64,000 bases of DNA from Clostridiaceae bacterium (GTDB lineage: Bacteria; Bacillota; Clostridia; Saccharofermentanales; DTU023), in the NCBI GenBank assembly GCA_012799825.1, contig JAAZKK010000023.1:3953-67952 (forward strand), in the 5' to 3' direction. Below are positions 1 to 64,000 of this stretch, piece by piece; the stretch's first letter is position 1; the number at the start of each line of letters is the position of its first letter. Both the position numbers and the translations under genes were made by a program. Under the pieces are notes generated by a model. It did not search any database. It saw only the letters and a program-made list of their open reading frames with translations, and was not told the origin of the DNA.

Positions 1-1
1 A

Positions 2-2757: not shown

Positions 2758-2857
2758 GATACATTCCGCATCACATAGTCTCATGTGGTTGTCGCACTTG
2801 AAGGTGAGTTTTGCGGTATCAAGTTGTTCAAATGAAAAAAAAAGACTATGATGGACA

Positions 2858-3088: not shown

Positions 3089-4729
3089 ATGTCGATCATC
3101 AAGAAGCTTTTCTATAGAGTATTTCAGTTTTTACTGGTGGGTGTTGGCATGTCTTTTATGCCGCAGCCGAGTCCCAAATTGCTTACGGGAGTCGGTTGTA
3201 TCAAGGAGCTTCCTGCGTTTATCAAGGGGCGCGGTATTGATAAAGTCCTGATTGTAACCGATAAAGTGCTGTCTCAGATAGGACTTTTAGACAGCCTTTT
3301 TGAAGCATGTGATAAAGATAGACTATCGTATGTGCTTTACGATGAGGCGATCGTCAATCCCTCCATCGAATGCATTGAAAAAGCTTATGAGACGTATCGC
3401 GAACAAGGCTGTCAGGCTTTTATCGCTTTTGGCGGCGGCTCGGCGATGGATTGCGCGAAAGCGGCGGCTGCCCGTGTCGCAAGACCCAAGAAAAGTATTT
3501 CTCAGCTCGGCGGCACACTCAAAGTGCGGAGTTTCAAGGTGCCGCTGCTTTTTGCCGTTCCGACGACGGCCGGAACAGGTTCGGAAGCCACGCTGGCGGC
3601 AGTCGTGACCGACTACAGTACGCAACATAAGTATGCCATCCAAGATCCTTCGCTCTTGCCTAAATTTGCCGTGCTCGATCCCGAACTCACAGTCGGTCTC
3701 CCGCCGCATACGACAGCGACAACGGGACTTGACGCATTAACACACGCTATTGAGGCGTATACCAATAAATTCGCTCCAAGGTATACGCGACGTCTGTCAG
3801 AGAAAGCAACAAAACTTATTTTTGAGAATTTACCGAAAGTGTATCGAGACGGGAAAGATCATGAAGCACGTGCTAACATGCAGCTTGCCGCACTTTATGC
3901 GGGCAGGGCATTCAGTCGCGCCTGTGTAGGTTATGTGCATGCTATCGCCCATACTCTAGGCGGCCTTTACGGTACACCTCATGGCCTTGCTAATGCCGTC
4001 ATACTCCCTTACATCATGGAAGATTTCGGTTCTGCAGTGCATAAAAAGTTGGCACGCCTTGCCGATGTCGTCGGCATCGAAGGCAGCAATGACGAAGAGA
4101 AAGCAAAGGCCTTTATCGCAGCCATCAAGAAGATGGAACGCGATATGAACATCCCTGAAAAAATAGACGTCATCCAAGATGAGGACATTCCTAAAATGGT
4201 TCGATTTGCCATGAAAGAGGGCAACCCGCTTTATCCTGTTCCTGTTATCTGGGGGAAGGAGGAGTTTGTAAGAACCATAGAGCGCATTCGTTCGAAAGAT
4301 AGTAAGAGAGCTTATTTCATCAGCAAAAAATGTATAGGCTGCACCCTTTGCGCCAGAAACTGCCCCGTGTTTGCCATCGAGGGGAAACCGAAGGAAAGAC
4401 ACGTCATCAATCCGAAACGTTGCATTGAATGCGGTGTATGCGCCAATATGTGCAACGTGGGAGCCATACTTGATGCGGACGGGAGGGCCGCGAAGAAAAA
4501 ACCAAAGCAGGAATGGAAAAAACCTGTGATCGACGAAGAGCTTTGCAGCGCTTGTTCCATCTGCGTCCAAGCCTGCGGGAAGAATTGTATTCGTATTTCA
4601 TCTCCGAAGTATAAAGGTGACATTAATGTTCATGCTTATCTTGAAAATGAAAAACAGTGTGTCGGATGTGGCGTATGTGCCTTGCGTTGTCCGTTACACG
4701 CCATCACGATGAAGGGCGGTGAAGAATAA
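3089..4729 (+). CDS. Iron-containing alcohol dehydrogenase fused to a C-terminal 4x[4Fe-4S] polyferredoxin domain
   Basis: Residues ~25-400 match the Fe-ADH family (GGGSAMDCAK, HAIAHTLGG..HG). Residues ~410-546 carry four Cys motifs: CIGCTLCARNCP, CIECGVCANMC, CSACSICVQAC and CVGCGVCALRCP. A purine-rich RBS (gagggggg) lies upstream. Confidence 0.85.
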   Translation: MSIIKKLFYRVFQFLLVGVGMSFMPQPSPKLLTGVGCIKELPAFIKGRGIDKVLIVTDKVLSQIGLLDSLFEACDKDRLSYVLYDEAIVNPSIECIEKAYETYREQGCQAFIAFGGGSAMDCAKAAAARVARPKKSISQLGGTLKVRSFKVPLLFAVPTTAGTGSEATLAAVVTDYSTQHKYAIQDPSLLPKFAVLDPELTVGLPPHTTATTGLDALTHAIEAYTNKFAPRYTRRLSEKATKLIFENLPKVYRDGKDHEARANMQLAALYAGRAFSRACVGYVHAIAHTLGGLYGTPHGLANAVILPYIMEDFGSAVHKKLARLADVVGIEGSNDEEKAKAFIAAIKKMERDMNIPEKIDVIQDEDIPKMVRFAMKEGNPLYPVPVIWGKEEFVRTIERIRSKDSKRAYFISKKCIGCTLCARNCPVFAIEGKPKERHVINPKRCIECGVCANMCNVGAILDADGRAAKKKPKQEWKKPVIDEELCSACSICVQACGKNCIRISSPKYKGDINVHAYLENEKQCVGCGVCALRCPLHAITMKGGEE

Positions 4730-4731
4730 GC

Positions 4732-6645: not shown

Positions 6646-6733
6646 GGCGGGGATGGCTTTATTCGGAATGGAAAGATTAAACGACTGCACCGGCTCGATG
6701 TAAAAGTGTGAGGCTAAGTGTGAGGGACATAAT

Positions 6734-6964
6734 ATGGCGAATATAAAATACTTTGGAAAATTGCGTACACTATGCGGCAAGAACGAAGACCGCATTGCCG
6801 CCAATAACCTCACGGAACTTTTGCGTGCGATTCAAAAGCTCTACGGCAAAGAGGCAAAAAAAGCTGCAAAGGCGGCTCTTATCACGGTCGATGGCGATAA
6901 AATCCTTTCAATCCGAAAGACAGCACTATCTGACGATTCAAAAGTCTCCTTTTACCCTGTTTAA
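6734..6964 (+). CDS. MoaD/ThiS-like beta-grasp protein lacking the C-terminal Gly-Gly
   Basis: This 76-aa protein begins IKYFGKLRTLCGK and ends DDSKVSFYPV-stop. That resembles the MoaD pattern (..FFA.LRE..G.., ..GDEVAFFPPVSGG), but the ORF stops before any SGG. Confidence 0.5.
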   Translation: MANIKYFGKLRTLCGKNEDRIAANNLTELLRAIQKLYGKEAKKAAKAALITVDGDKILSIRKTALSDDSKVSFYPV

Positions 6965-7338
6965 TTCTGTCATACAAGTCTTCGGTACAAGATTGCTCCG
7001 ATGATTTCTTTAATACATCGATATTATTCCTTTGATTAAGGTTGAATGCCTGATTAAACTGGACGACCCGCGATTCTCACTGTCCAAGTTACTTTGGCAT
7101 TCAGCTTTCCTTCGTTTAAGACGAGCTGCTCAAGGAAAGCCGCTCAGGATATGTGTAATCTGTGTTATGATATTTAGCGGTATTCTAGTTCGAATATCAG
7201 TCGTTTTTTTGCACAAACTGCTCTGAGCAGAGTATTGGCAAAGTTGATTTCTTGCACGCGTTACGTTGCAAGTAAAAAAGTTCAAATAGAAGCGTAAAAA
7301 AGATTAGCTTCAAAAAAATGTTACAAGGAGTTCACATC

Positions 7339-9456
7339 ATGAAAAAAGAGTCGCTAGATCGCCTTTTTAAACCCGATTCGGTAGCCATCATCGGTGCTTC
7401 ATCTAAGCCCGGCAAAATTGGTTATGCCGTTGTCGAAGCGTTAAACGAGGGAAAGTATGAAGGAAAAATCTTTCCCGTAAACCTCAGAGAAAAGGAGATA
7501 CTCGGTCATAAAGCCTATCCGGCTATCGGCGATATCCCGGAGAAGGTTGACCTCGCGGTTATTTCGATTCCCGCAAAATTTGTCCCCGATACAGTTGAAG
7601 AATGCGGTAAAGCAGGGGTCGGCGGGGTCAGTATCATCACATCCGGCTTCAGCGAGGTCGGAAACCATGAAGCGGAGCAGCGCATACTGGAAATTGTCAA
7701 ACGTTACGGAATGCGCATGATGGGTCCGAACATCATCGGCACGCTGAGCAATTCGCATAAGCTCAACGCCTCCTTTGCGCCGATGTTGCCGCTTCCCGGA
7801 AAGAGTGCTTTGATTTCACAGTCGGGCGCTCTTTTGATTGCGTTGGATGCGGGGACGTATCTTCGCGGCGTCGGCTTTGACAAATTGTTTTCTCTTGGGA
7901 ACATGGCTGATGTGGACTTTGCCGATATCGTGGAATGGTTGGACAAAGATGATTTTACCAACAGCATCGCACTTTATATCGAGGGGATGAGCAAGGGCCG
8001 TCGTTTCATGGAAGTCTGCCAAAAATGCAGCAAACCGGTCATCGCTTTGAAGTCCGGTGTTTCCTCGCACGGTGCCGCCGCCGCGGCCTCCCATACCGGT
8101 TCGCTGGCGGGTGCGGCGAAAGTATATGGCGCGGCTTTCCGTCAGGCCGGTGTTGTAGAAGCCGAAAGCTTGAATCACCTCTTTGACCTCACACAGGCCT
8201 TTCAACTTCAGCCGCCCATGCAAGGCGACAACCTTCTTATTGTTACAAATGGCGGAGGCGTCGGCGTTCTGGCGACGGATTCCGCTGAACGTTACGGCAT
8301 TCCGCTGAAATTCTTGCCGGATGATCTCCAAGTCGAAATGAAGAAATATATGCCCGATTTCGGATCTGCTAAAAATCCCGTCGACATCACCGGACAAGCA
8401 GGTCTTGAAGGTTATCAGAAGAGCATTGAATTTGGGCTCAAACAAGAGTGGGTCGATGGTTTGGCCGTGCTTTATTGCGAAACGGCCGTCACCAATCCGA
8501 TGGAGATCGCCGAAGGCATCTATAACGCTGTGAAAGCGGCCGGTCCTGTGATGGACTATAAACCCGTCGCCGTCGCTTTTGTTGGCGGCGAAAGAAGCGC
8601 TGAGGCGGTGCGCTGGCTTATCGACAACGGCATTCCCGCTTATGACGATCCGAATCGCGCTGTCAGCGCGTTGAGCGCTTTGCGTCATTACGCGCGGATG
8701 CAGGAAGAAAAAGTCGGCATGACACAGATGGTGCCGGCGGTCGATGGCGCTTATGAGAAAGCGCTCGCCATCATCAAAGGCGCGCGTGAAAGCGGTCGCG
8801 ACGCGCTCACTGAAGTTGAAGCGAAAGATGTCTTTGCCGCGTATGGCCTGAATGTTACCAAAACGACACTCGCGAAAACAGAAGATGAAGCGGTGGCCAT
8901 GGCTGAAGATATCGGCTATCCGATCGTGATGAAGATCGTATCTCCTGACATTCTCCATAAATCGGATGCCGGCGGCGTGGTCGTCAACATCAAGAACGAG
9001 CAGATGGTGCGTGACGCCTATAAGAGGATTCTCGACAATGCGATTGCTTATGATCCCGATGCCGACATTTATGGCGTCGCCGTACAGGAGATGGCGCCCT
9101 CGGGAACAGAAGTTATCTTAGGTTCTACAACGGATCCCGCGTTCGGTCCCGTGCTCATGTTCGGTCTTGGCGGCATTTTCGTTGAAGTGTTGAAAGACGT
9201 GACGTTTGCCGTATGCCCCGTGTCTGAAGCACAGGGGATGAAGATGCAATCACAAATCCGCGGTGCGGGTATCTTGAAAGGAGCTCGCGGTGAAGCGCCG
9301 CGCGATCAAGAAGCCATGGCGGAACTCATCGCGCGTTATTCAACGATGATGTACGATCTTCGAGATGAGATCAAGGAATCAGATGCGAACCCCGTTATGC
9401 TGTATGAGCAGGGGAAAGGCCTTAAAGTGGTCGATGCGCGCATCATTCTAACATAA
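7339..9456 (+). CDS. ADP-forming acetyl-CoA synthetase / acetate--CoA ligase (fused alpha-beta, NDP-forming acyl-CoA synthetase family)
   Basis: It has a CoA-binding N-terminus (LFKPDSVAIIGASSKPGKIGY) and a succinyl-CoA-synthetase-like ligase domain with SHTGSLAG. A C-terminal ATP-grasp domain follows (YPIVMKIVSPDILHKSDAGGV). I prefer the start at 7339 (aaggag RBS at 7325-7330) over the listed 7318. Confidence 0.85.
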   Translation: MKKESLDRLFKPDSVAIIGASSKPGKIGYAVVEALNEGKYEGKIFPVNLREKEILGHKAYPAIGDIPEKVDLAVISIPAKFVPDTVEECGKAGVGGVSIITSGFSEVGNHEAEQRILEIVKRYGMRMMGPNIIGTLSNSHKLNASFAPMLPLPGKSALISQSGALLIALDAGTYLRGVGFDKLFSLGNMADVDFADIVEWLDKDDFTNSIALYIEGMSKGRRFMEVCQKCSKPVIALKSGVSSHGAAAAASHTGSLAGAAKVYGAAFRQAGVVEAESLNHLFDLTQAFQLQPPMQGDNLLIVTNGGGVGVLATDSAERYGIPLKFLPDDLQVEMKKYMPDFGSAKNPVDITGQAGLEGYQKSIEFGLKQEWVDGLAVLYCETAVTNPMEIAEGIYNAVKAAGPVMDYKPVAVAFVGGERSAEAVRWLIDNGIPAYDDPNRAVSALSALRHYARMQEEKVGMTQMVPAVDGAYEKALAIIKGARESGRDALTEVEAKDVFAAYGLNVTKTTLAKTEDEAVAMAEDIGYPIVMKIVSPDILHKSDAGGVVVNIKNEQMVRDAYKRILDNAIAYDPDADIYGVAVQEMAPSGTEVILGSTTDPAFGPVLMFGLGGIFVEVLKDVTFAVCPVSEAQGMKMQSQIRGAGILKGARGEAPRDQEAMAELIARYSTMMYDLRDEIKESDANPVMLYEQGKGLKVVDARIILT

Positions 9457-9696: not shown

Positions 9697-9772
9697 TGGT
9701 GATCCACCGGGGACTCGAACCCCGGGCCCCTTGATTAAAAGTCAAGTGCTCTACCGTCTGAGCTAGTGGATC
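9697..9772 (-). tRNA. tRNA-Lys (anticodon UUU)
   Basis: The reverse complement folds as a cloverleaf with acceptor GATCCAC/GTGGATC. The anticodon arm is CTTGA-CTTTTAA-TCAAG, the T-loop is GGTTCGAGTCC, and CCA is encoded. Confidence 0.93.
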
Positions 9773-9775
9773 GTT

Positions 9776-9851
9776 TGGCTGGGATGGCAGGACTTGAACC
9801 TGCGAATGCGGGAGTCAAAGTCCCGTGCCTTTACCACTTGGCTACACCCCA
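9776..9851 (-). tRNA. tRNA-Gln (anticodon UUG)
   Basis: The reverse complement begins TGGGGTGTAGCCAAGTGGTAAAGGC. The anticodon arm is CGGGA-CTTTGAC-TCCCG, the T-arm is GCAGGTTCAAGTCCTGC, and CCA is encoded. Confidence 0.92.
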
Positions 9852-9870
9852 ACGTCTTATAAGCCAAATA

Positions 9871-9948
9871 TGGGGTGGAATATGGGACTTGAACCCACGA
9901 CCTCCAGGGCCACAACCTGGCACTCTGACCAACTGAGCTAATTCCACC
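9871..9948 (-). tRNA. tRNA-His (anticodon GUG, with encoded G-1)
   Basis: The reverse complement begins G-GTGGAATTAGCTCAGTTGGTCAGAGT. The anticodon arm is CCAGG-TTGTGGC-CCTGG. The extra 5' G opposite discriminator C is typical of tRNA-His, and CCA is encoded. Confidence 0.92.
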
Positions 9949-53371: not shown

Positions 53372-54325
53372 ATGATCACGTTTACGCTTTTGTCGCTTTT
53401 TCCGGAACAGGTATTGGACGCATTGCAACACAGCATCACCGGGCGCGCGTTACGTGAAGGCCATATCAAGATTCGTCCTGTCCAAATTCGCGATTTTGCG
53501 ATTAATGACTACGGTCAAGTCGATGACGCTCCTTACGGCGGCGGACGCGGCATGCTCATGATGTGTGAGCCGATCTATCGCGCTTGGGAAAAAGCGCGCG
53601 CCGATATTTTGGAAGAACTGAATGCGACGTACATGAACTCGACACGCACGGACGCGCAGTTCGCACCCCAAAATAGTATTGAGACGAAAGGAACGCCGCA
53701 GAACGTATCATGCGACAGCGACTCGAATCATTCCCAGGCTCTTGCTGTTTTTCAAGATTTGTCAAAAGAAGTATCGTGTAGGAACGGTTCGATCGATGAC
53801 TGCGACGCGGCATCTTGTCCAAACACTCAAAGCTTTCGAACGATATTTCTTTCACCGAAAGGGCGAGTGTTTAATCAGCATATAGCGCTCGAACTTTCAA
53901 AGACATCGAATGTGATCTTGCTCTGCGGTCATTACGAAGGCGTTGATTGTCGAGTATTGGACGCGATCGGCGCCGAGGAAGTGTCGATCGGCGACTTTAT
54001 TTTGACGGGCGGAGAGCTTGCCGCCGCCGTCATCATTGATGCGATCACACGCTTGATCCCTGGAGTCTTGCCCGATGAAGACGCTTGGCAGCGTGAATCA
54101 TTCGCTTCTCATTTCCTTGAAGAGCCTCAATATACACGTCCTTCAGAGTGGAGAGAGCGTTCCGTGCCGGATGTGCTCTTATCAGGACATGCTGCGAATA
54201 TTGAAAAGGCTCGGAGGCGTATGCGCCTTTTGGAGACACTCAAAAAGAGACCTGATCAACTGCAGGGAAAAAAGATTGACGCGTCACTTTTAGAGGATCT
54301 TGCCGCAGCTCTCCTAGACGAGTAA
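53372..54325 (+). CDS. trmD: tRNA (guanine37-N1)-methyltransferase TrmD (with ~65-aa insertion)
   Basis: It contains LLSLFPE, DDAPYGGGRGMLMM, FLSPKG, LCGHYEGVD, SIGDFILTGGE and LSGHAANI. At 317 aa it is longer than the usual ~245. Confidence 0.92.
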   Translation: MITFTLLSLFPEQVLDALQHSITGRALREGHIKIRPVQIRDFAINDYGQVDDAPYGGGRGMLMMCEPIYRAWEKARADILEELNATYMNSTRTDAQFAPQNSIETKGTPQNVSCDSDSNHSQALAVFQDLSKEVSCRNGSIDDCDAASCPNTQSFRTIFLSPKGRVFNQHIALELSKTSNVILLCGHYEGVDCRVLDAIGAEEVSIGDFILTGGELAAAVIIDAITRLIPGVLPDEDAWQRESFASHFLEEPQYTRPSEWRERSVPDVLLSGHAANIEKARRRMRLLETLKKRPDQLQGKKIDASLLEDLAAALLDE

Positions 54326-54477: not shown

Positions 54478-55329
54478 TTATGTCCTTCTCTTTCTTGGTA
54501 TGGCGCTTTCACAGGGGACACCGGTTTGGCATAGGCCGCAACCGTACCGTGGTTTAAATAGATTGCCCATTTTACTTAGCCAAGCACCGCATAGATTATG
54601 ATCTTTCCCTTCAGCGAGACTGATTGCCTGTGCCGGACATCTTTTAACACAAGCACCGCATCTGTTGCAATGATCGTAAATACCGGTATAGGGGCGCGGA
54701 TCGGCAGCTAATTCTTTGCTGACAATGATGGATATGAAGCGACCGGCCATTCCTTTTTCAGTGATAAGACCTTTTGACAGACCGAACGTGCCCAAACCGG
54801 CTATATAGGCCACGTGGCGTTCAGACCAATTGCTGCTAAAGGTGTCCGCCGTGACACAGGAATACTGTTTAAAGTTATTTCCGGCTACGACGACTTCAAA
54901 TCGCTGATCGGTGATGGGCACACAGGTCTTGATGTCGTTGTCGTCAAACCATTTTTTCAAGCTCTCGATAAGTTTTAGGAGATAGGCTTGACCTTCAATT
55001 CTGCCGTGTAACCATTCCGCCGCAGGATGCGTCGTTGCTTTCCGGTTCGCTGATTTTACGGCTTCTGTATAGGGAAAGAAGAGCGATATCACGGTCTTTG
55101 CTTCCGGCAACCATTCCGTGGGGCTTAGAAACCAAGGTCCTACAATATCTGAGTTTTTGAATGCTTCAAACAGTTCGTCTGTTGCAGAAGCAAACCCTAC
55201 AAGCGGCTCGCCGAAGATGTTGAGGCCAATCAGCTCAGGTGAAATGGCCTCTTTTTCTGTAACAATATTTCCGGGGCAGGTCTCATGCAGCGCGCATATT
55301 CTGTGAATAATTCTTTCTTTGTCCATCAT
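54478..55329 (-). CDS. QueG-like / reductive-dehalogenase-like 4Fe-4S protein
   Basis: The C-terminus has CNRCGACVKRCP plus a second Cys cluster, CGLCQTGVPCE. Overall it resembles proteins annotated as epoxyqueuosine reductase. I prefer the start at MMDKER (55329). Confidence 0.5.
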   Translation of the reverse strand: MMDKERIIHRICALHETCPGNIVTEKEAISPELIGLNIFGEPLVGFASATDELFEAFKNSDIVGPWFLSPTEWLPEAKTVISLFFPYTEAVKSANRKATTHPAAEWLHGRIEGQAYLLKLIESLKKWFDDNDIKTCVPITDQRFEVVVAGNNFKQYSCVTADTFSSNWSERHVAYIAGLGTFGLSKGLITEKGMAGRFISIIVSKELAADPRPYTGIYDHCNRCGACVKRCPAQAISLAEGKDHNLCGAWLSKMGNLFKPRYGCGLCQTGVPCESAIPRKRRT

Positions 55330-55526
55330 CTCTCGCCTTACTAAAAAGATTATATTTGGAGATTCGGAGCGTGAGAATTTTACGTTGCTCATTATTATAT
55401 AAGCTCATATAAAATTGTCGATCTTTTGACATTTATTGTATCTCTGCGTTGTCATCTCCTTTGTTCGTTTTCATTAACTGAGCAGAGGTTATTCAGCATT
55501 ATCGCAAGATCGAGCGGCGCCTAACC

Positions 55527-55566: not shown

Positions 55567-55642
55567 CGGGGTGTGGCTCAGGTGGTAGAGCGCTTGGTTC
55601 GGGACCAAGAGGCCGCAAGTTCAAGTCTTGTCACTCCGACCA
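55567..55642 (+). tRNA. tRNA-Pro (anticodon CGG)
   Basis: The sequence begins CGGGGTGTGGCTCAGGTGGTAGAGCG. The anticodon arm is CTTGG-TTCGGGA-CCAAG, the T-loop is TTCAAGT, the acceptor 3' strand is CACTCCG-A, and CCA is encoded. Confidence 0.92.
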
Positions 55643-55649
55643 AGACTTC

Positions 55650-55685
55650 GCCGCTGGGATCTCATTGTTTCAGCGGCTTTTCTTG
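55650..55685 (+). terminator. Terminator after tRNA-Pro (overlaps 3' end of convergent glpP)
   Basis: The stem gccgctg / cagcggc flanks a 14-nt loop and is followed by ttttctt. Confidence 0.6.
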
Positions 55686-56278
55686 TCTCTTTTTTCTTGA
55701 AAGATCGTATTGATCTCGCCAAGCGAAAAAGTACTGGCGGAGATAGCGACGGCGCCGCCTTCCAATGCATCCAAAACATCTTGAGGCGTCTTGATGAGAC
55801 CGCCTGCGATCACCGGACATTGGACAATTTTCGCGACCTCTCGAAAATAGCGTGTAACAATACCTGGCAGGACTTCGACTAGGTCGGGTTCGCACTGATT
55901 AATTGTATGTTTGACGTTGTCCAGTGCCATGGAATCCAACAGAAAGAAACGGAGGATGGTGAATAGTTTCAGTTCCTTACCCCGCTTCAATAGTTTTGGG
56001 CGTGTAGAGATGATGCCGTCTGCGCCAACTTCTTTTTTTATATAATCCACGACTACCTCGCGCGGCGCGAATCCGTCGATTAAATCAACATGTACGATGG
56101 CAATTTTGTTGCGCTCATGGATTTTTTTAACGATATTGGGCAGTGTACAGATGTTGCCTGATAAAATAAAGATGACATCGTGACTGCCGCCAAGAAGTTG
56201 ATCGAGGCGATCTGTATCCTTTACAGCAAGGATGATGGGTGAGCGCTCGATATGTTCGATGATGGAGAGAGGTTGCAT
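55670..56278 (-). CDS. glpP: Glycerol-3-phosphate responsive antiterminator GlpP
   Basis: It shows the G3P_antiterm family pattern (PIILAVKD.., VIFILSGNI..L..IVKKIHE..K.AIVHVDLIDG, GIISTR, IQRFFLLDS-like LRFFLLDS, VEVLPG, PVIAGGLI). I prefer the start at MQPLS. Confidence 0.8.
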   Translation of the reverse strand: MQPLSIIEHIERSPIILAVKDTDRLDQLLGGSHDVIFILSGNICTLPNIVKKIHERNKIAIVHVDLIDGFAPREVVVDYIKKEVGADGIISTRPKLLKRGKELKLFTILRFFLLDSMALDNVKHTINQCEPDLVEVLPGIVTRYFREVAKIVQCPVIAGGLIKTPQDVLDALEGGAVAISASTFSLGEINTIFQEKRDKKSR

Positions 56279-56627
56279 AAAGACCTTGCCTTTCTTCAAC
56301 GGCGGTCGGCTTTCTAATGGTTAGTATGTTTGTCAATGGCGACAAAAACAGTCAATTACAAGTTACATATGCTCATTATAACAGGGTATGCCATATTGTG
56401 CATCTTTTTGTTAGATTTTAATAATACATTTAACTATCGGTATTCATTGAAGAAATGTATGTGGTACATAGGGTAAAACAATTGATTAAAAGATGAAAAT
56501 ATGATGTAATAGCAAAGCAGGGCAATAATATCGGTCAAGCCCAAACTCTACACGTATCATTTCAGACTCGGATGAATGGTTGATACCATCACTAGAGCAC
56601 ATAGCTAGAGATGATTGAGAATAAAAA

Positions 56628-59600
56628 ATGGCTATAGGAGGCTATATGTCTGGAGTTATCTATTGTGAACAGTGCGGCAAAATGTTAAGGGCGGACAATA
56701 TCTATTGCACATCCTGTGGCAATAAGTTACGTCATGTACCAAAGAGTCTCATTGAGACTAGCGATTACACTGAACCAAAGAGTCTCAGTGAGACGAGTGA
56801 TTACACTGAGACAAAGAGTGAAGAGAAGATTGTACAGATACGGCAACAAACACGGGAGCAAAAGCCTAACTTGCTACAAGAATCTGACGCAATTTCTCAG
56901 GACGATATGCACGATACGCTTGAGCCAGAGGGTTCAGCTCAAGAGGTCCTCTCTTCGATTGTTAACGCAGCGTTAGAAATGGATGATGAGGGAAAATATC
57001 CCGGTTCCCTTCTTTCCGTTCTAGATGAATACATCGCGCAGTATCCCGAGAATACCGGAGAGGCACTGTACTATAAGGGTATTATTTTGAACCATCACCT
57101 CAATCCTGCTCCGGACACGACTGAGATTTTCTCTTGTTTTAACCGCGCTCTTGATATGGGTGAAAAACGTGCCGCTGTCCACTTAATGAGATCAGTTTAT
57201 AATCACGGGGATGAAATCACTGTGCCGCATAAGCCTTGGGAAGATTATGCCAGAATTTCCGTTTATGAGGCAGGCGATTTACAAGCGGCCACCTTTCTTG
57301 CTTTGATCATAGTGCAGGGCGAAATTGAGGAAAAATTTGAAAATGAGGGACATAAGCTGCTCGTTCTTACTTCAGTAGAAGGCGATGCAGTTCTTCCCAG
57401 AGTGTTACAAGGTGAACTGATTAAGATCTCAGATGACGTTTTTGATTTATTGGTAGACTCCTATTCTTCGACCTTATCCGGTCTTCCGCAAGAGAATGCA
57501 AAGTTCAAATTATTGTCAGAGAGTCTCTACGATTTCGCCTGCACTTACATCGATACTACCGGTGATCAGTGGAAATCGAGAATATTGAGAATCGCTGATT
57601 TGCTCTCGGCGTATGATTGCGCTCCCGCCTACAATCTCCAAGGTCTTGTTTTAGAAGAAGGAATGACCGGAGAGCGAGATTTACAAGGGGCTAAGGACTA
57701 TTATAAAAAGGCGATAGAACTCGGGGATGCAGAGGGCCTTTTCCGTCTAGGATATCTATATTTAGGTGAGAGCGGGGAAACACCCAACCCCGTAGCAGCA
57801 GCATCCTATTTTCGTAAGGCAGCAGATAAAAATCATGGTACCGCCACTAATAGTCTAATTGTTTTACTGAGAACTGAAAGAGTTCCCATGGAAGACGACG
57901 GGGAGCTGGTTCGTTTGTTGCTTAATGCCTTAGAAGAAGGAATAATTACCGAAGACAATGCTTTCTATTTGGCATCACTATATGTTGAGGGCACCGATAA
58001 TTTAGCAAAGGATGAGCAGAAAGCAATTTCAATTCTTGAAGCTATTAGTGAAGACTTTCTAGATGCGCGTGTATATTTAGCGTACCGTTACATAGAAACA
58101 GAGACAGAAATAGAAAAAGTTACTGAAATCTTGGAAAGGGCAGTAACAGCAAATCACCCCATGGGTCTCTATACTTACGGTGATTTTCTGCTTGACAAGA
58201 AAGACATCACTCAAAAAGATGAAATTCGTGCTCTAGATTTTCTCGAACGAGCTTATGACCTAGGTATTGGCCTAGCTGCATTATCTTTGTCTACCTATTA
58301 CCTGCAGAGATGTAAAGACCCTCTCAATTATCCTCGAGCCATTATCTGGTCTCTGAGGGCTCTCGCTATAGGTTTTTCTTCTGAGGTTACAAAAATTGCC
58401 ATTGACGCTGTCATTGAAAAGGCCTGTTCGGAAAATATTGACCCTCTTACGGGTCATGCTACGACGGAACCACAAGTTTGGCTTAAACTGGATGGAGGCA
58501 AGATAGGAAATAAAATCGCCATAGAACGTGGTGTTGTTAATTCAATGCCTCTTCTTTCTTTACCATCCCCTGATGTCGCTAAACAACGACCAAGCAAGAT
58601 AGAAGAGGAGCATGAGCAGATTACTGAAGGGTCCGGTCTCATAAAGGACGAGCCCAAACATCCTAAGATAAATGAGACAGCTAAGTTGGACTCTTTACCT
58701 ATCGAACCACAACAACAATTATGGATCATAGAGCACAATAACATTAGAAATACCGGAGACAAGACGAAGGCTCTTGTCTATGCAACTCAGAAGCAAGAAG
58801 CCTATCCAAATAGTTATTTTGCCAATTACATGTTGGGCGTGAGTAAAATGGATTTTGGCGAGATCGATGATGCTGTCGGTTGCTTCAATCGTGCACTTAA
58901 TGCCGAACCTCGACCTGCTGAGTCTTACGAGAGAGTTTCTGGCATATTGTTTGATAACGGTCACCATATGCACGCTTCTGTCTTTGCTGGTGTTGGTTTA
59001 GAAAAGTACCCGGATAGTTTGCCTTTATTTTGCATACGCTTCGAATCGCTTCGATTGACAAGCACCCCGGACACTCTCAGGAAACAATTTGCCATCGAGG
59101 GTAAATTAGTTCCTAAGGTTTGTCGTGACGTATACTTGGCTTTTTCATATTATGATGATTTGTTTCAATTGGTTGACAATGTTGTCATTGACGGGGAAAC
59201 GGATCAACGTCTCCTTGGCGAAGAAAAAATCAACAAGGCAAAGGTGCTCGTAACGAAGTTAAATCAGACAATTCCGACAGACGTGCCTGCGGAAGTAACA
59301 AAAATCTATCCAATATTTGCAAAGTACCTGAAAGAAGATATCGAGAATCTTCGTGCTGAAACCAAAATCGTTGAGGATCTGATTGACTTTGAATGCAAGA
59401 GAAAGTTTATCTTTGAGTATGCCAAGATACCGTTGATTGCCCTTGGAGCATCTATTTTCTTATTCAAATACGCTGGTTTCTTGGCCTTTATTCTCTTTAT
59501 CTTCGGGCTAATTGGAGTCTTAGCATCCCGAGTGCCTCGGTGGAGATTATTTGCACATCACTATCCCGGAACCTCATTGCCTGAATATAACCTCTTTTAT

Positions 59601-59645
59601 GCTTATCGTGACTTCTTCCGCGACATATCAAGCTCAGGAGACTGA
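56628..59645 (+). CDS. Large Zn-ribbon / Sel1-like repeat / TPR-like protein with C-terminal TM hairpin
   Basis: It has an N-terminal CEQCG..CTSCG ribbon and Sel1-type repeats (GAKDYYKKAIELGDAEGLFRLGYLYL.., AASYFRKAADKNHGTATNSL). A TPR-like block follows (AVGCFNRALNAEP), then the hydrophobic hairpin IPLIALGASIFLFKYAGFLAFILFIFGLIGVLA. An alternative start lies at 56646. Confidence 0.7.
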   Translation: MAIGGYMSGVIYCEQCGKMLRADNIYCTSCGNKLRHVPKSLIETSDYTEPKSLSETSDYTETKSEEKIVQIRQQTREQKPNLLQESDAISQDDMHDTLEPEGSAQEVLSSIVNAALEMDDEGKYPGSLLSVLDEYIAQYPENTGEALYYKGIILNHHLNPAPDTTEIFSCFNRALDMGEKRAAVHLMRSVYNHGDEITVPHKPWEDYARISVYEAGDLQAATFLALIIVQGEIEEKFENEGHKLLVLTSVEGDAVLPRVLQGELIKISDDVFDLLVDSYSSTLSGLPQENAKFKLLSESLYDFACTYIDTTGDQWKSRILRIADLLSAYDCAPAYNLQGLVLEEGMTGERDLQGAKDYYKKAIELGDAEGLFRLGYLYLGESGETPNPVAAASYFRKAADKNHGTATNSLIVLLRTERVPMEDDGELVRLLLNALEEGIITEDNAFYLASLYVEGTDNLAKDEQKAISILEAISEDFLDARVYLAYRYIETETEIEKVTEILERAVTANHPMGLYTYGDFLLDKKDITQKDEIRALDFLERAYDLGIGLAALSLSTYYLQRCKDPLNYPRAIIWSLRALAIGFSSEVTKIAIDAVIEKACSENIDPLTGHATTEPQVWLKLDGGKIGNKIAIERGVVNSMPLLSLPSPDVAKQRPSKIEEEHEQITEGSGLIKDEPKHPKINETAKLDSLPIEPQQQLWIIEHNNIRNTGDKTKALVYATQKQEAYPNSYFANYMLGVSKMDFGEIDDAVGCFNRALNAEPRPAESYERVSGILFDNGHHMHASVFAGVGLEKYPDSLPLFCIRFESLRLTSTPDTLRKQFAIEGKLVPKVCRDVYLAFSYYDDLFQLVDNVVIDGETDQRLLGEEKINKAKVLVTKLNQTIPTDVPAEVTKIYPIFAKYLKEDIENLRAETKIVEDLIDFECKRKFIFEYAKIPLIALGASIFLFKYAGFLAFILFIFGLIGVLASRVPRWRLFAHHYPGTSLPEYNLFYAYRDFFRDISSSGD
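56739..56810. repeat. 36-bp tandem repeat x2 (plus partial third) inside the 1005-aa gene
   Basis: The units are ccaaagagtctcattgagactagcgattacactgaa and ccaaagagtctcagtgagacgagtgattacactgag. They encode PKSL(I/S)ETSDYTE twice. Confidence 0.9.
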
Positions 59646-59866
59646 TACATAATAGAAATATTGCAAGACTTGATCACTGGAGAAGTGCTAGTTTTAACTA
59701 TGAGTTAAGAAACTTTACAATACTTACAATACAACTATGATAGTATAGAAAAAGTATTCTACGACCTGACGCGGCAAAAGGAAACGCTTCAGCTGTTTTT
59801 TGTTGCCGGAGATAATAGCCACAATTTTATAAAAGAATATACTGTGAAGTAACAAGGAGACTTACT

Positions 59867-61099
59867 ATGGCAATAGCAGAAGTAGTTAAGTTTGAAGGTT
59901 CTCCGGATGCCTTGGTGTGGAAATACCCACTCGAAAATTTTAACGCAACATCTCAGCTAATCGTGGATGAGACTCACGAAGCCTTGCTCGTTGTAAATGG
60001 CAACGCTGCGGATCTTTTTACGGCAGGACGCCGGACACTATCTCTCCCTAACATTCCTCTTGCCCGTGAGTTGATAGAAATTCCTACAGGCGGGGAATCT
60101 CCTTTCCCGTGCAAGGTGTTTTTTATCAACAAGGTTCATCAGATGAACCTATTATGGGGTACGCAAGGGCCTATAGCTTTAGAAGATCCAATGTATGACA
60201 TTTTTATGCATGTGATGGCCAATGGCAGCATGTCAGTCTCCGTTGATAACTCCCGAAAATTCATGCTAAAAATGGTTGGATTTAGGGATAGCTTCAGTAA
60301 CGATGAGATGATCACAAAATTCCGTGGCATTATATCATCTCAGGTTAAAGACTCCATTTCAAAAATCATGATTAACGGCATGCTCAGCTACTTCGTTATG
60401 AACGCACACCTGTTTGAGTTAAGCGGTGTGATCAAAGAGCGCCTTGATTCTGTTTTTGACGAGTATGGAATTAACATTCAGTACTTTAACATAGAAACCA
60501 TAGAAGTTCCTGAAGATGACTACAGAAAAGTAAGCGATGCCAAAGACCGCAGAACAAGCCGAATGATCGAAGGCTATACTTGGCAGGAAGAGCGTCAAAT
60601 GATGATCGCCGAGAAGTTTGCCGGCAACGAAGGCACGATGGGCAACGTTGGCGGCGCAGTTGGTGGTTTCATGCTTGGAGGTGCCCTAGGTGGTTCTGTT
60701 GTTGACATAGCAAGGAACGCGCTTGACCCGGCGAGGATCCCTGATGGAAATCCACCAAAGGATGCTGACGGAACACATGTTTACCCCGGGCAAGAACGTA
60801 CTGGTTTTGACGTCAATAATTTTTTCAAACCCAAAGAAGAATCCGGGGAACTTACAAAATCAGAAAAATGCCCTAGATGTGAGGCAAAACTGCCGGCGGA
60901 CGCTAAGTTTTGCTCGAACTGTGGTTGGAGTATTGATAGTAATAAAAACACAATCGTTTGTCCTAACTGCAACAATGAAGTGCCCAAGGGTAAGTTCTGC
61001 TCGAAGTGTGGCAGCGTACTCCAAAATCTCTGTCCTAAGTGTGGTACAAAATTGCACGCAGAAGCAAATTTTTGCCACGAGTGCGGCGAAAAATTATAG
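59867..61099 (+). CDS. YdjI-type SPFH (band-7-like) protein with three C-terminal zinc ribbons
   Basis: The N-terminal ~270 aa resemble the COG4260/YdjI family (VVKFEGSPDALVWKYP.., SQLIVDETHEALLVVNG.., GGESPFPCKVFFINK..LWGT). A Gly-rich linker follows, then CPRC..CSNCG, CPNC..CSKCG and CPKC..CHECG. An aaggag RBS lies upstream. Confidence 0.7.
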   Translation: MAIAEVVKFEGSPDALVWKYPLENFNATSQLIVDETHEALLVVNGNAADLFTAGRRTLSLPNIPLARELIEIPTGGESPFPCKVFFINKVHQMNLLWGTQGPIALEDPMYDIFMHVMANGSMSVSVDNSRKFMLKMVGFRDSFSNDEMITKFRGIISSQVKDSISKIMINGMLSYFVMNAHLFELSGVIKERLDSVFDEYGINIQYFNIETIEVPEDDYRKVSDAKDRRTSRMIEGYTWQEERQMMIAEKFAGNEGTMGNVGGAVGGFMLGGALGGSVVDIARNALDPARIPDGNPPKDADGTHVYPGQERTGFDVNNFFKPKEESGELTKSEKCPRCEAKLPADAKFCSNCGWSIDSNKNTIVCPNCNNEVPKGKFCSKCGSVLQNLCPKCGTKLHAEANFCHECGEKL

Positions 61100-61112
61100 G
61101 GGTGAATAGACA

Positions 61113-61814
61113 ATGAATAAGACAGATAGAAAGACGAAAAGTGTCGTTGGAATTGCTCTGATCTACGTGATCATTTTTGGGGTGCTTAATCTCCTCATCT
61201 TCACAATCTTTAAAACGCGGACGAATGTGTTTTGGCTGAGCTATGCTTTTATGGCTCTGGCCTTTGTCGTCCAGATTGTCAGTATGTTTCTTTCGTTCAA
61301 GAAGGCCGACGTTGAGACTGCCTTCTTTGGTATCCCTTTGGCGTCATTCTCGGTATTCTATCTCGGAGCTGCCATCGTCGTTGGGGCACTGTTTATGATT
61401 TTCCAAGCTGCAAGTTTTACTCTGGCTTTGGTCATTCAGACTCTTGTTCTTGCTACTTTCTTGGTAATCGCCATTATCTCATTGCTTGCCCGCGACACTG
61501 TACAACAGGTTATCGAAGATCAGAAGAAAGATGTCGCCAGTCACAAATCTGTGCTTGTCGACATTGAAATGATGAGTGAAGCTGTTGCCGATCCTGAACT
61601 AAGGAAGGCGCTTTACAGACTCTCCGAAACGGTTAAATACTCTGATCCAATAACAAATGAGGCTGTTGCAGGTATTGAGCAACGTATAAAGCATAAAGTC
61701 AAAGAATTAGGGTTTTGCATTGAAGATAATCAGATTGCAGACGCAATGCATACATGCGGTGAGCTCGAACAGATGTATCTCGAAAGAAATAAGCGGCTTG
61801 CCATCTCTAAGTAG
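61113..61814 (+). CDS. Four-TM membrane protein with ~100-aa helical cytoplasmic tail
   Basis: This 233-aa protein has four hydrophobic segments in residues ~10-125, followed by a charged helical region. It starts 13 nt after the SPFH gene stop, with a ggggtg RBS. Confidence 0.6.
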   Translation: MNKTDRKTKSVVGIALIYVIIFGVLNLLIFTIFKTRTNVFWLSYAFMALAFVVQIVSMFLSFKKADVETAFFGIPLASFSVFYLGAAIVVGALFMIFQAASFTLALVIQTLVLATFLVIAIISLLARDTVQQVIEDQKKDVASHKSVLVDIEMMSEAVADPELRKALYRLSETVKYSDPITNEAVAGIEQRIKHKVKELGFCIEDNQIADAMHTCGELEQMYLERNKRLAISK

Positions 61815-61832
61815 TCGTAGAGAGGTGCATAG

Positions 61833-63827
61833 ATGACGGTTCGTTTTGTAGCACGAAAATGCGATCAATGTGCCGGAAGGTTACAGTACATAAGAGAGAA
61901 GAAAATTTGGAAGTGCCTTTACTGTGGAGCAGAAATTGAGAGACAAGAGCAATACAGTGCTCTCTTTACCATAAAAAATGTGGTTAGGCAGTCTCTCCTA
62001 GATAGTGCCTATAGGCGTCTTGAAAGTGCGGCGGATAATCTCCTTGAGTGCAAAAAAATTGACTCACACTATATTGGAACACTTATTGCCGGCCTTACCT
62101 ACGACATTATCCGAGTAACAACTCCGGGTGCATGTGAGCCTCGGGAAGTCAGTCCAATTTTGACACAGGTCGCAAAGAACTATAAGCAGCTCAAAGCCTT
62201 CAGCACGACCGTAACCGAAGAGGAGGAAGCTCTTTATGAGTTTCTCGAAGAATCGGATATACTTGCGACCTTGGTTTTGGTGTATGACTCGCTAGGTGAT
62301 GCGATTCGTCGGGATTTTGTTACACAAATGATTGATGCCCGCGAGATATTCTCAATACCCGTGAACACGAACCTATTAAGGTATGCAATAAAAAACGAGC
62401 TCATTGACCTTGCAGACCAAATTATCGCTAATGTAAACAACATTGATGTTAAGACGGCGCTGATTGAGGTGATGGAAAAGTACCCGGATAATGGTAGCAA
62501 GGGCGACAGGATCACAACACTCCTATCGACGAATGAATTGAAGTATGAAGACCGAAGGCTGATAGAAACTTATTTGAGCAAGTCTCCCGACACCGTCTCA
62601 ACGAAGAGCAAGGTCGCATCTGCCGCTATTAATCAGGGTTTATTAGTAAATCTAGATGTTTTGATGGATCATGTCATACGACAGGCAGACGTTGCTATTG
62701 TGCAAGAGGCCTTATCAGCCTTCTGTAAAACAAAGATCAGCGATGAGGATGTTGTAAAAATCCTCTCTTTTGCCTACGAGTGTGGGAATATTGAATCTGC
62801 AAAGGTCGCACTGGACTGTTTGAAAGATAGCGAGCAATATGTTCTCATTCCTACAAAACTGCTCATATCAATGCTTTCAGACAGCAAAATCAACCAAAGC
62901 GACAAAATTGCCCTGCTCGACAAATCATTTGAGTTTAGGATAGATGATAAATCCTTCGAAGCCTTGCTGAAGCACTATCTCTGTTTTAATGACGACTCGA
63001 CGGAGAAGCGAAAGCCTATCGTTGACTATTTGCTTGAGCGAGCTGTAACCATCTCATCCGCAACAGTAAATACATATGTTTTGCAGACCTCTATTGATGG
63101 TGAAAATAAACCGTCAATAGTGGAAAAGATATTCAGTAAAGAGCTGATTCTTAGCTTTTTCAATGACCTGCTTTCTGATTATATGGCAAGTGATACTGAT
63201 ACAAGTGAGGTTAAAACCGCTATTGTTGAGATACTGTCTCAGAAGGGTTTAAAGGTTAGTCCCGGAGATCTCATTGAATACATCTGTGACTCTCCAGATG
63301 ACTTGCCCACGAAGATTCGGTTCATCCAGAAGATGGTAGCAAACGGTTCGCAACTCAGAGCGGATGCGGCAAGCACTTATCTGGAACGAATGACACCGGA
63401 TTCGTTCAGTTCAGAGTTGTTTTCCTTGATTTTTACGCCAGTGAGTTTGTTTTCTTTACGTGCTGCAGAAAACTATCTCCTTTGGATTAAGGATAACGAA
63501 ACTGTAAAAGGAGCCAATGTAAAGTCTATATTAGATCGCTGTACTGGTGACATCGCCAGCGTAAGATGCCATGTAAGCCACCTTGGGAATACCGTAACTT
63601 GTAATATGTTACAAGCCTACACACTCGTTACGACTGATTCACAGACAACAGCTTTGGAAGTGGCAAACTTCTTGATTTCAGGCAAAAAACTAAAACTGAA
63701 CGATGTCGTTCAAGTTTCCGGTTCAAATATGCGGCTAAAGAAGTACGTTATGGCAAACAGTGTGAGTTTAAGCACAGCCACTAACGCTATTTGTGAACAA
63801 TATAGGATGTTCTCGCTATTTTTCTAG
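61833..63827 (+). CDS. Zn-ribbon protein with large helical-repeat (ankyrin/HEAT-like) body
   Basis: An N-terminal ribbon, CDQCAGRLQY..WKCLYCG, is followed by ~620 aa of repetitive amphipathic helices. The gene starts 18 nt after the upstream stop, with a gagaggtg RBS. Confidence 0.6.
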   Translation: MTVRFVARKCDQCAGRLQYIREKKIWKCLYCGAEIERQEQYSALFTIKNVVRQSLLDSAYRRLESAADNLLECKKIDSHYIGTLIAGLTYDIIRVTTPGACEPREVSPILTQVAKNYKQLKAFSTTVTEEEEALYEFLEESDILATLVLVYDSLGDAIRRDFVTQMIDAREIFSIPVNTNLLRYAIKNELIDLADQIIANVNNIDVKTALIEVMEKYPDNGSKGDRITTLLSTNELKYEDRRLIETYLSKSPDTVSTKSKVASAAINQGLLVNLDVLMDHVIRQADVAIVQEALSAFCKTKISDEDVVKILSFAYECGNIESAKVALDCLKDSEQYVLIPTKLLISMLSDSKINQSDKIALLDKSFEFRIDDKSFEALLKHYLCFNDDSTEKRKPIVDYLLERAVTISSATVNTYVLQTSIDGENKPSIVEKIFSKELILSFFNDLLSDYMASDTDTSEVKTAIVEILSQKGLKVSPGDLIEYICDSPDDLPTKIRFIQKMVANGSQLRADAASTYLERMTPDSFSSELFSLIFTPVSLFSLRAAENYLLWIKDNETVKGANVKSILDRCTGDIASVRCHVSHLGNTVTCNMLQAYTLVTTDSQTTALEVANFLISGKKLKLNDVVQVSGSNMRLKKYVMANSVSLSTATNAICEQYRMFSLFF

Positions 63828-63849
63828 AATTCGAGGAAGGAGCTTATGC

Positions 63850-64000
63850 TTGATCAAAACGCTTGAATTGGCCAATGGCATGTTTGTCAGCAAATCAATT
63901 GCTGAAGTAACCTCTGTTCCTCACTATTCATTATTATCTGATGAACTTGACCGCGCCAATTATTTAAACCAAGTTTTGTTCACTCAACTTCTTCAAACTG
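63850..64000 (+). CDS. 5' part of a further ORF running off the window (hypothetical)
   Basis: The frame is open from the TTG at 63850 to the window end (LIKTLELANGMFVSKSIAEVTSVPHYSLLSDELDRANYLNQVLFTQLLQT). A ggaaggag RBS lies 7 nt upstream, 22 nt after the previous stop. Confidence 0.35.
   Translation, partial: MIKTLELANGMFVSKSIAEVTSVPHYSLLSDELDRANYLNQVLFTQLLQT

Follow-up and report, generated by a model that had tools for sequence, protein, structure and literature searches.

A 12-gene system pairing an SPFH protein with a HerA-like ATPase on a horizontally acquired island of a Clostridiaceae bacterium, with features that point to biological conflict

What function could unite a tightly packed set of genes for SPFH, membrane and zinc-ribbon (Zn-ribbon) proteins on DNA whose composition departs from that of its surroundings? 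This question is raised by positions 56,279 to 64,000 of a 64,000-nucleotide (nt) stretch of DNA from a Clostridiaceae bacterium (contig JAAZKK010000023.1, positions 3,953 to 67,952), which is referred to here as the window. An original prediction, made from the sequence alone, had described five open reading frames (ORFs) at this end of the window as a candidate undescribed membrane-associated system. The cluster is real, but the window holds only the first third of a unit of 12 co-directional genes, here lettered B to M, which continues beyond position 64000 on contigs L001 and L069 and includes genes for a HerA-like ATPase, a Cdc48-like ATPase and a toxin cassette. The sequences point to biological conflict as the function of this undescribed, membrane-anchored system with two ATPases, because the slot occupied by gene F is polymorphic, because a sister clade of loci encodes TIR-repeat proteins and because a polyacidic ORF is paired with gene E.

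The part of the unit that lies in the window is on the plus strand throughout. Gene B (59867-61099) encodes a 410-amino-acid (aa) protein composed of a Band_7_1 SPFH domain (Pfam, 1.3e-35), a Gly-rich linker and three Zn-ribbons, the latter matched by DZR (3e-18) over three CxxC...CxxC stretches. No transmembrane (TM) segment was found in it by hydropathy, and the protein is predicted to be soluble. The same arrangement of a soluble Band_7_1 SPFH domain, a low-complexity stretch and C-terminal Zn finger(s) describes YdjI/SamI (PMC8581546), and B is proposed on its sequence to be an SPFH protein of this type that serves as a membrane-proximal scaffold. Gene C (61113-61814) encodes a 233-aa protein with four hydrophobic helices by hydropathy (residues 10-33, 39-62, 71-97 and 101-126), followed by a soluble, helical and cytoplasmic tail of about 105 aa. 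It has zero matches in Pfam, NCBIfam, PADLOC and the PDB, and would be the membrane anchor for B. Gene D (61833-63827) encodes a 664-aa protein with an N-terminal Zn-ribbon, an α-solenoid of about 520 aa and a small α/β C-terminal domain, and gene E begins at 63850 with a TTG codon, the first 50 codons being contained in the window (63850-64000). The intergenic gaps are 13 nt between B and C, 18 nt between C and D, and 22 nt between D and E, and a purine-rich ribosome-binding site (RBS) precedes each downstream gene. The five ORFs of the original prediction, with their spacings, RBSs, domains and low guanine-plus-cytosine (GC) content, were thus recovered as described in the ORF, domain and composition analyses; all of them are real genes, of which the one cut by the window end proved to encode a 902-aa HerA-like ATPase and the first probably starts at 56646, downstream of the start originally assigned.

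Of the window proteins, D is the one for which an adaptor or sensor role is proposed. No family or PDB sequence match was found for it in Pfam, NCBIfam or a PDB profile search, and its AlphaFold2 model (predicted local distance difference test score, pLDDT, 89.9) returned only generic solenoids when compared with the PDB by Foldseek (TM-score 0.1-0.25). The D family is a rare one (187 representatives among 1.84 billion), and it outpaces most other families conserved in the operon in divergence (26-64% identity, vs 45-76% for E). Some of its relatives are chimeras in which a Zn-ribbon, TPR and TIR segment is fused ahead of a D-type solenoid, and the N-terminal parts of the long chimeras are 41-58% identical to operon proteins of the second clade described below. 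Among the models of PADLOC-DB v2, B has no match and C and D have matches at noise level only (E-value 0.012-0.03). The Zn-ribbon itself recurs on B (in three copies), on D, on the product of the upstream gene A and on the TIR proteins of the second clade, and from this recurrence we infer that it is a shared docking module.

The remainder of the unit was read from a composite, in which the window was joined to the near-identical contigs L001/L069 (1 mismatch in 12,168 nt); the window translation of gene E is the N-terminus of the 902-aa product encoded there. E is an ATPase of the HerA/FtsK superfamily. It matches DUF87/HerA_C in Pfam, mad8 (1e-17) and, partially, HerA (3e-13, residues 572-772) in PADLOC, and HerA (4d2i, 1e-7) as well as 9x1l and 8xau in the PDB, and its top NCBIfam matches are CedD (4e-17) and CedB (2e-6), which are again partial (62 vs 600 bits for the family cut-off). 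Its Walker A (GxPGSGKT) and Walker B (LIDEAH) motifs are invariant. The likeness to HerA is confined to the ATPase core, approximately residues 410-770; the flanking regions, of 400 aa at the N-terminus and of 130 Cys-rich aa at the C-terminus, are without match. E is the best-conserved marker of the system. Gene F encodes a 687-aa protein in which a polyacidic region of about 470 residues of acidic tandem repeats, encoded by 120-nt DNA repeats, is followed by a C-terminal papain-like domain, which has conserved Cys and His residues (in GTCGPTS and DHW, respectively) and matches Peptidase_C39_2 weakly; the polyacidic region has a net charge of about -195. The small gene G that follows (164 aa) co-varies with the toxin and is a putative antidote to F, and it showed no match to known Imm families. 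Genes H (581 aa), I (533 aa) and M (578 aa) encode helical proteins with a C-terminal TM hairpin that are paralogues of one another (hhalign probability 100%, E-values 4e-60 and 1e-39), and for which no structural relatives were found. Genes J (63 aa) and K (166 aa) encode two small proteins. Gene L encodes a 511-aa AAA ATPase of the Cdc48/VAT D2 type, with a match to VAT at 3e-55, PF00004 as its only Pfam family, and further similarity to Vps4/CdvC-type AAA proteins (8e-27) and to the anti-phage ATPase model NF042959 ('IteA', 5e-24). The pore loop (KWVGESE), Walker motifs and Arg fingers of L are all intact.

Pfam, NCBIfam, PADLOC and the PDB offer no counterpart for nine of the 12 families (C, D, G, H, I, J, K and M, together with the N- and C-terminal parts of E), and PDB profile searches with B, C, D, G, H, I, K and the papain-like domain of F returned nothing but coiled-coil and Zn-ribbon noise. 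Public annotations list the matchless operon families as hypothetical, with the exception of gene I (L069 10001-11602, equivalent to window positions 70988-72589), which is recorded as a 'type VI secretion system contractile sheath protein TssC' (NCBI NMA18206.1). NCBIfam, Pfam and Foldseek do not support this assignment, as neither profile collection matches gene I to the TssC/VipB family and the PDB structures listed by Foldseek include no sheath protein, and the protein has a C-terminal TM hairpin; the name looks like a mis-annotation that could propagate. Matches of the gene I model (pLDDT 75) to the pore toxins ClyA, AhlB and NheA and to SMC-like proteins were likewise discarded as helical-bundle noise (E-values 0.2-0.6, TM-score <0.27), and Foldseek searches of the model against the PDB and BFVD gave nothing significant.

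The conservation of the operon was followed in 59 loci from GTDB species representatives by BLAST and iterated hidden Markov model mapping. Relatives of E in public protein collections number at least 775; they come from Clostridia and Chloroflexi, and many have 56-76% identity along the entire protein. The order B-C-D-E-F-G-H-I-J-K-L-M is kept in about 30 species, among which E is 45-76% identical, and which belong to the Oscillospiraceae, Lachnospiraceae, Ruminococcaceae, Christensenellaceae and Anaerolinea (Clostridia and Anaerolineae). Examples include Hungatella hathewayi (strain WAL-18680, locus NZ_JH379027.1:823509-846184), Ruminococcaceae bacterium P7 and metagenome-assembled genomes of Anaerolinea, and the carriers are abundant anaerobes of the gut, the rumen and digesters. 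A second clade, numbering about 28 species, has retained B, C, at least one Zn-ribbon protein and E (36-41% identical), and here unrelated or opposite-strand genes frequently come after E. Within the 50 loci with enough upstream sequence, B lies near the HerA-like gene in 44, C in 39 and a D-like gene in 40, so that the co-occurrence in other genomes on which the original prediction had depended is borne out; H, I and L are present in 24 of the 41 loci with enough downstream DNA. Since B, C, a gene for a Zn-ribbon protein and E are retained in both clades, the four genes B to E, all of them window genes, are the core of the system.

In the second clade, 19 of 35 Zn-ribbon proteins carry a TIR_2 domain (best 3.5e-14), and these proteins also bear TPR, LRR_5 (1e-101) or ankyrin repeats and often a TM hairpin. 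The distribution of the loci is sporadic and crosses phyla. Their flanks are mixed and include housekeeping genes, and at a minority of loci the neighbours are mobile-element or conflict genes (IS110, TraG/VirD4, FtsK_SpoIIIE, a TIR-Sel1 protein, DUF3990). At L022 (181-5640), for instance, the neighbours encode a 775-aa protein with TIR, Sel1/TPR and acidic repeats and a 305-aa TPR/Sel1 protein; at L027 (3-6145), a 1204-aa FtsK_SpoIIIE protein and a DUF3990 protein; and at L059 (5013-7976), a 987-aa Tubulin_2 protein. In several Oscillospiraceae a gene for a TetR-family regulator (TetR_N 2.6e-10), which is absent from the island of the window, lies directly upstream of B (L010 1540-2124; L011 5427-5975; L012 5084-5929; L014 5360-5944), and it is possibly a dedicated repressor of the operon. 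Searches of the phage and viral collections INPHARED and IMG/VR found no relatives, a result that is neutral, and plasmid searches returned only distant HerA-like matches. One of these is on the mobilisable Priestia megaterium plasmid pN447-3.1 (L082 11102-18027), which carries a distant three-gene relative lacking the SPFH gene. Its first gene encodes a protein of 141 aa; the HerA-like ATPase has 963 aa and 31% identity to E, and acidic tandem repeats make up about 750 aa of the third protein, which has 1135 aa in all.

The slot of gene F is polymorphic. In different species it holds Gln_amidase (3e-10), Endonuclea_NS_2 (9e-25), Colicin-DNase (1e-12)/WHH (5e-11), HExxH peptidase-like or papain-like Cys/His domains, so that nuclease, deamidase and peptidase classes are swapped, all of them joined to a polyacidic region. 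In some species the order is repeat region, papain-like peptidase, linker and toxin. The small downstream gene co-varies with the type of toxin, occurring as G of about 160 aa, as G7 of 75 aa, as a form of about 97 aa and as G joined to HD_4. The last of these is seen at L017, where F has a C-terminal extension and the matching G is extended by an HD_4 hydrolase (7e-9); the F extension matches RelA_SpoT with an E-value of only 0.039, and this match is therefore treated as a hint. A search for relatives of G returned only eight close ones, all inside the operon. F, which is polyacidic from residue 1, showed neither a segment resembling a signal peptide nor any N-terminal trafficking domain of a known kind. 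In about 35 of the 59 loci, no more than 50 nt separate E from the single long polyacidic ORF present there, and the pairing persists in the 31%-identical Priestia plasmid version without SPFH. Two proteins of the second clade, of about 1100 aa and encoded between C and E (L048 6674-9979 and L054 6752-9961), show another layout. That of L054 has a WHH/Colicin-DNase domain and then a (D/E)-P-rich PT-type repeat of about 450 aa, and that of L048 has the same sequence arrangement, as judged by its layout rather than by a domain scan; the two share an N-terminal GGRHRIAAAQELG motif, which may be ParB-like.

Taken together, these properties are tentatively best accommodated by a membrane-anchored immune machine of the abortive-infection type, a reading to which we give a little less than even confidence and which comes close to the membrane-acting anti-phage module that the original prediction had offered as an alternative. 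It is favoured because of the TIR domains and repeats in the second clade, the chimeras and fast divergence of D, the HerA-like E, the Cdc48-type L, the variable effectors of the F slot, the pairing of E with a polyacidic protein and the sporadic spread of the loci across phyla. E also brings an immune-type signature, resembling the HerA of anti-phage systems together with the DNA-translocating HerA/Ced ATPases. The analysis shows which genes the unit contains and how far they are conserved, that they were transferred horizontally, which domains and paralogues they encode and that toxins and partners are swapped; every interaction, the trigger and the outcome of the following mechanism are inferred. 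On the inner side of the membrane, B would dock on C and form a platform, to which partners marked by a Zn-ribbon (D in this island, the TIR-repeat proteins in the sister clade) and a hexamer of E would be recruited. E could then grip the polyacidic, DNA-like arm of F, so that the toxin, neutralised by G, would be parked at the membrane. The trigger might be sensing by the fast-evolving solenoid of D, or incoming foreign DNA competing for E, and upon it E and/or L would spend ATP in releasing or unfolding the F-G complex. The freed effector would kill or arrest the infected cell, which would amount to abortive-infection immunity.

Several points weigh against such a role. No link to phages was found, B, C and D are without a match among the PADLOC models, the flanks of the loci are mixed and have housekeeping genes among them, and the TIR proteins sit in the sister clade and not in the operon of the window itself. 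F and G resemble a classical polymorphic toxin and its downstream immunity gene, and in some species a papain-like domain stands ahead of an extra toxin domain in the manner of a releasing peptidase, a pattern that is typical of exported interbacterial toxins and not of suicide effectors. Five membrane proteins with an FtsK/HerA-class ATPase and an AAA ATPase resemble a translocon, and the DNA-mimic gating step is pure conjecture.

The main rival is a new toxin-export machine of monoderm anaerobes, with a logic comparable to type VII secretion, which we consider possible though rather unlikely. If this less probable alternative held, E would be the motor or coupling protein, L would unfold or load cargo, H, I, M and C would form the conduit and B would be the assembly scaffold; F would be the exported protein, with its polyacidic repeat as an export signal or wall-spanning stalk and its papain-like domain as the toxin or as the part that releases it, and G would shield producing cells and their kin. 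Flotillin promotes assembly of the type VII secretion system in Staphylococcus aureus, and Glu-rich signals are read by the coupling complex of the Dot/Icm system. The F slot accommodates classical polymorphic-toxin domains (Gln_amidase, Endonuclea_NS_2, WHH/Colicin-DNase) directly before a small co-varying gene, as with G+HD_4 where F gains its C-terminal extension, and the order of repeat, papain, linker and toxin matches the tripartite layout and releasing peptidases of exported polymorphic toxins (PMC3482391). Both ATPases of the operon belong to classes known from secretion systems, those of the FtsK/HerA class powering type IV and VII secretion and AAA ATPases accompanying the type VI secretion system (T6SS), PVC and ESX (PMC3482391), and there are five conserved membrane-anchored proteins, three of them paralogues, in addition to the acidic protein that adjoins E (within 50 nt in about 35/59 loci). 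However, known trafficking features (WXG/LXG, signal peptide, PAAR) were not found, E is a single HerA-like ATPase domain without TM helices and without an FtsK_SpoIIIE or VirB4 match above noise, and the anchors other than C are hairpins, with the bulk of each protein cytoplasmic. The island is also without a cell-wall hydrolase or surface component, no orphan toxin/immunity arrays were found within ±10 kb, and the toxin domains of L048 and L054 stand ahead of the acidic repeat, an unusual order for polymorphic toxins that are exported. Finally, the sister clade swaps the downstream genes for TIR-repeat proteins, which fit sensors or effectors and not a translocon.

Two further explanations carry less weight than either immunity or export. 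The island could serve a mobile element, as an apparatus for DNA transfer or uptake in which E pumps DNA or as an addiction module with F/G as a toxin-antitoxin stabiliser, but this is improbable. CedD (4e-17) and CedB (2e-6), the top NCBIfam matches of E, are archaeal DNA-exchange ATPases, the island is horizontally acquired, TraG/VirD4, FtsK_SpoIIIE or IS110 genes lie near some loci and the distant version is on a mobilisable Priestia plasmid; yet relaxase, integrase, pilin, replication and partition genes were not found in the island, no repeats are shared by its borders, such neighbours occur at a minority of loci only, and the Ced matches cover the ATPase domain alone, at 62 bits against the cut-off of 600. 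More improbable still is a module for sensing or repair of envelope stress of the PspA-YdjGHI (SamGHI) type, which the original prediction had put forward and in which membrane and Zn-ribbon proteins would recruit the SPFH protein so that damaged membrane is stabilised or repaired, and the ATPases would remodel the assembly. B does share Band_7_1 and the layout of soluble SPFH, low-complexity stretch and Zn finger with YdjI (PMC8581546) and is adjacent to genes for a membrane protein and a Zn-ribbon protein, and L is also similar to Vps4/CdvC-type AAA proteins (8e-27). The original prediction is supported as to the family and architecture of B and its adjoining membrane protein. However, C and D belong to no described family and are at most putative homologues of YdjH/YdjG, and none of the 13 island genes encodes PspA, LiaH or an ESCRT-III protein in Pfam scans of the full island. 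The conserved partners are instead of the conflict type, namely toxin/antidote cassettes, a HerA-like ATPase and sister-clade TIR proteins, and residence on foreign DNA with sporadic spread across phyla is unlike a housekeeping stress system; a repair module of the PspA type is unsupported.

The island that carries the operon is clearly acquired horizontally, as the original prediction had suggested, because its GC and tetranucleotide composition depart from those of the backbone. The shift in both begins at an AT-rich spacer (56279-56645, GC 0.351) between glpP and gene A, which forms the left border, and the island extends for about 20.2 kb; it starts at 56.3 kb of the window and ends at what would be 76.5 kb, so that its left third lies in the window. 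Sliding GC is 0.41-0.44 from about 56 kb onward, vs about 0.50 across 8-55 kb. On the composite, GC is 0.430 for the island, 0.502 for the backbone and 0.523 for the downstream DNA, and tetranucleotide usage correlates with that of the backbone at 0.36-0.45 within the island and at 0.91-0.97 beyond it. GC at third codon positions (GC3) is 0.40-0.47 in genes A to D vs 0.51-0.56 in trmD, rimM and glpP. The left flank is the backbone gene glpP (G3P_antiterm; 55670-56278, minus strand; GC3 0.507), and on the right flank are glpA-like, DUF1667, glpK and glpF genes, where GC returns to 0.51-0.55. Because the island lies between glpP and the glp operon, the glycerol regulon is split, and, as the island ends at this operon, there are no psp or lia genes past 64000 of the kind that would have assigned the cluster to a characterised system. 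No repeats of at least 11 nt shared by the borders and no att-like repeats were found, Pfam scans found no integrase, relaxase, pilin, replication or partition genes among the island genes, and no empty insertion site was found, as 23 of 23 contigs with an identical GlpP also carry the island. A tRNA-Pro(CGG) gene followed by a terminator-like hairpin occupies 55567-55677; with glpP in between, it is 640 nt away from the left edge of the island and so does not mark the actual point of insertion.

Gene A (56646-59645, plus strand), the first gene of the island, stands apart from the operon. It encodes a 999-aa protein with a Zn-ribbon, Sel1/TPR repeats and a C-terminal hairpin of two TM helices (hydrophobic helices at 934-971 by hydropathy), with Pfam matches to Sel1 (3e-13) and, weakly, to Zn_ribbon and TPR. 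A longer ORF of 1005 aa (56628-59645) begins at ATG 56628, but ATG 56646 is the more probable start, as the AGGAGG at 56636 fits it better, and the 999-aa form is the choice of several gene callers. The gap between A and B is 221 nt and contains a promoter-like site (TTTACA-16-TATGAT, 59714-59741, plus strand), so that A probably has its own transcription unit. This site, a candidate promoter of the B-M operon on consensus match only, agrees with 10 of 12 consensus positions and is the top plus-strand match within 55.6-64 kb, a region in which the number of promoter-like sites overall is not above shuffled expectation. Among the 59 species loci, gene A is confined to the contigs of the source species (L001-L006) and is thus a species-specific accessory or passenger gene outside the conserved core, which removes the 1005-aa Sel1/TPR protein from the cluster as originally drawn. 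Its architecture of Zn-ribbon, TPR and TM hairpin recalls the accessory Zn-ribbon proteins of other loci, where the extra proteins beside the operon vary, being Zn-ribbon/TM proteins in some and TPR or Sel1 proteins in others.

Elsewhere in the window, positions 1-7500 are also deviant, with a GC of 0.467 and a tetranucleotide correlation of 0.75 vs 0.91-0.97, and may be another acquired segment. A cluster of tRNA-Lys, tRNA-Gln and tRNA-His genes lies at 9697-9947 on the minus strand. TrmD (53372-54325, 317 aa) has a low-complexity insertion of about 75 aa, at approximately residues 80-155, inside its tRNA_m1G_MT domain. A Fer4-like gene (54478-55392, minus strand) is intact in the window, where it encodes 304 aa; several metagenome contigs that are nearly identical to the window have it broken into 283/282 + 49 aa, which reflects either a strain-level frameshift or an assembly difference.

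The operon is an undescribed system built from partly known parts, and it most probably serves either immunity or the delivery of toxins. It has neither a name nor a literature, and most of its proteins are without a Pfam family, despite the presence of the HerA-like locus in about 60 species-level genomes. It brings a YdjI-type SPFH protein and a HerA-like ATPase together with TIR-repeat proteins, polymorphic toxins and an unfoldase like Cdc48, parts that are not known to work with one another. The pairing of a HerA-like ATPase with a protein bearing hundreds of acidic residues suggests that a relative of DNA pumps may handle a polyanionic polypeptide, a mechanism that would be new to description. 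Should the immune reading be true, the operon would represent a new membrane-based defence architecture and a concrete role in immunity for SPFH proteins; should the secretion reading be true, it would represent a new type of secretion that exports toxins with a DNA-like polyacidic mark in Gram-positive commensals, and with it a means by which bacteria of gut and digester communities antagonise one another. As carriers such as Hungatella hathewayi, Roseburia hominis, Pseudoflavonifractor and Ruminococcaceae P7 are in culture, either idea can be put to a direct test.

How, then, does this operon compare with systems already described? Full-text literature searches found no description of the present system, and the system-level family cut-offs were not reached for any known system. 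The PspA-YdjGHI/SamGHI system is the nearest with respect to B, which is likewise a Band_7_1 SPFH protein with no TM segment, a low-complexity linker and Zn fingers, encoded beside a membrane protein and a Zn-ribbon protein (PMC8581546; bioRxiv 10.64898/2026.02.06.704340). In contrast to it, PspA_IM30/ESCRT-III is absent from the 13 island proteins, and the island, itself foreign DNA, adds HerA-like and Cdc48-like ATPases, three paralogous membrane proteins and a toxin with its antidote. Type VII secretion also combines FtsK/HerA-superfamily and AAA ATPases with small-TM proteins and a polymorphic toxin with an immunity-like gene (PMC3482391). However, E has one HerA-like domain and no TM segment, vs two or three FtsK domains in EssC/EccC; WXG100, LXG, EssB, EsaA and YukD are absent, with no WXG/LXG Pfam match in F, G, J or K; and here polyacidic tandem repeats make up the N-terminal region of the toxin. 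Polymorphic toxin systems (Zhang et al. 2012) share with the F slot a common N-terminal part with variable C-terminal toxin domains, the feature by which such systems are recognised, as well as a co-varying small gene directly downstream and, in some cases, a papain-like domain upstream of the toxin. They differ in that the modes of export listed for them do not include a polyacidic repeat linked to a HerA-like ATPase (PMC3482391) and in that two toxins of the second clade carry the repeat C-terminally.

The remaining comparisons concern membrane complexes and immune systems. HflK/C-FtsH resembles the operon in the encoding of an SPFH protein with a classic-clade AAA ATPase at the membrane, but B has no TM anchor and is of the Band_7_1 family, and L has no TM segment or peptidase M41 domain and is closest to Cdc48/VAT D2. 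The sister-clade proteins and D chimeras, in which TIR is joined to TPR, LRR, ankyrin or solenoid repeats, are reminiscent of TIR-repeat sensors (Thoeris ThsB, TIR-NLR-like). In contrast to these, D of the window is without TIR, a ThsA-like or STAND NTPase partner is absent, and the TIR proteins here have an N-terminal Zn-ribbon and often a TM hairpin and are encoded beside SPFH and HerA-like genes. MADS, with mad1-mad8 including a methyltransferase, is represented only by the partial match of E to mad8 (1e-17), with no other mad model. With respect to HerA anti-phage systems in general, E scores 29.7 bits on NF042943 (HerA_antiphage) against a cut-off of 800, no Sir2, DUF4297 or NurA was found among the operon proteins by Pfam and PADLOC, and the system here is membrane-associated and much larger. 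Nevertheless, E shares the HerA-clade ATPase domain with Sir2-HerA, DUF4297-HerA and mad8 of MADS. In Sir2-HerA and DUF4297-HerA, a HerA hexamer scaffolds and controls a toxic effector, and it is by analogy with this logic that control of the effector by E is proposed for the present system.

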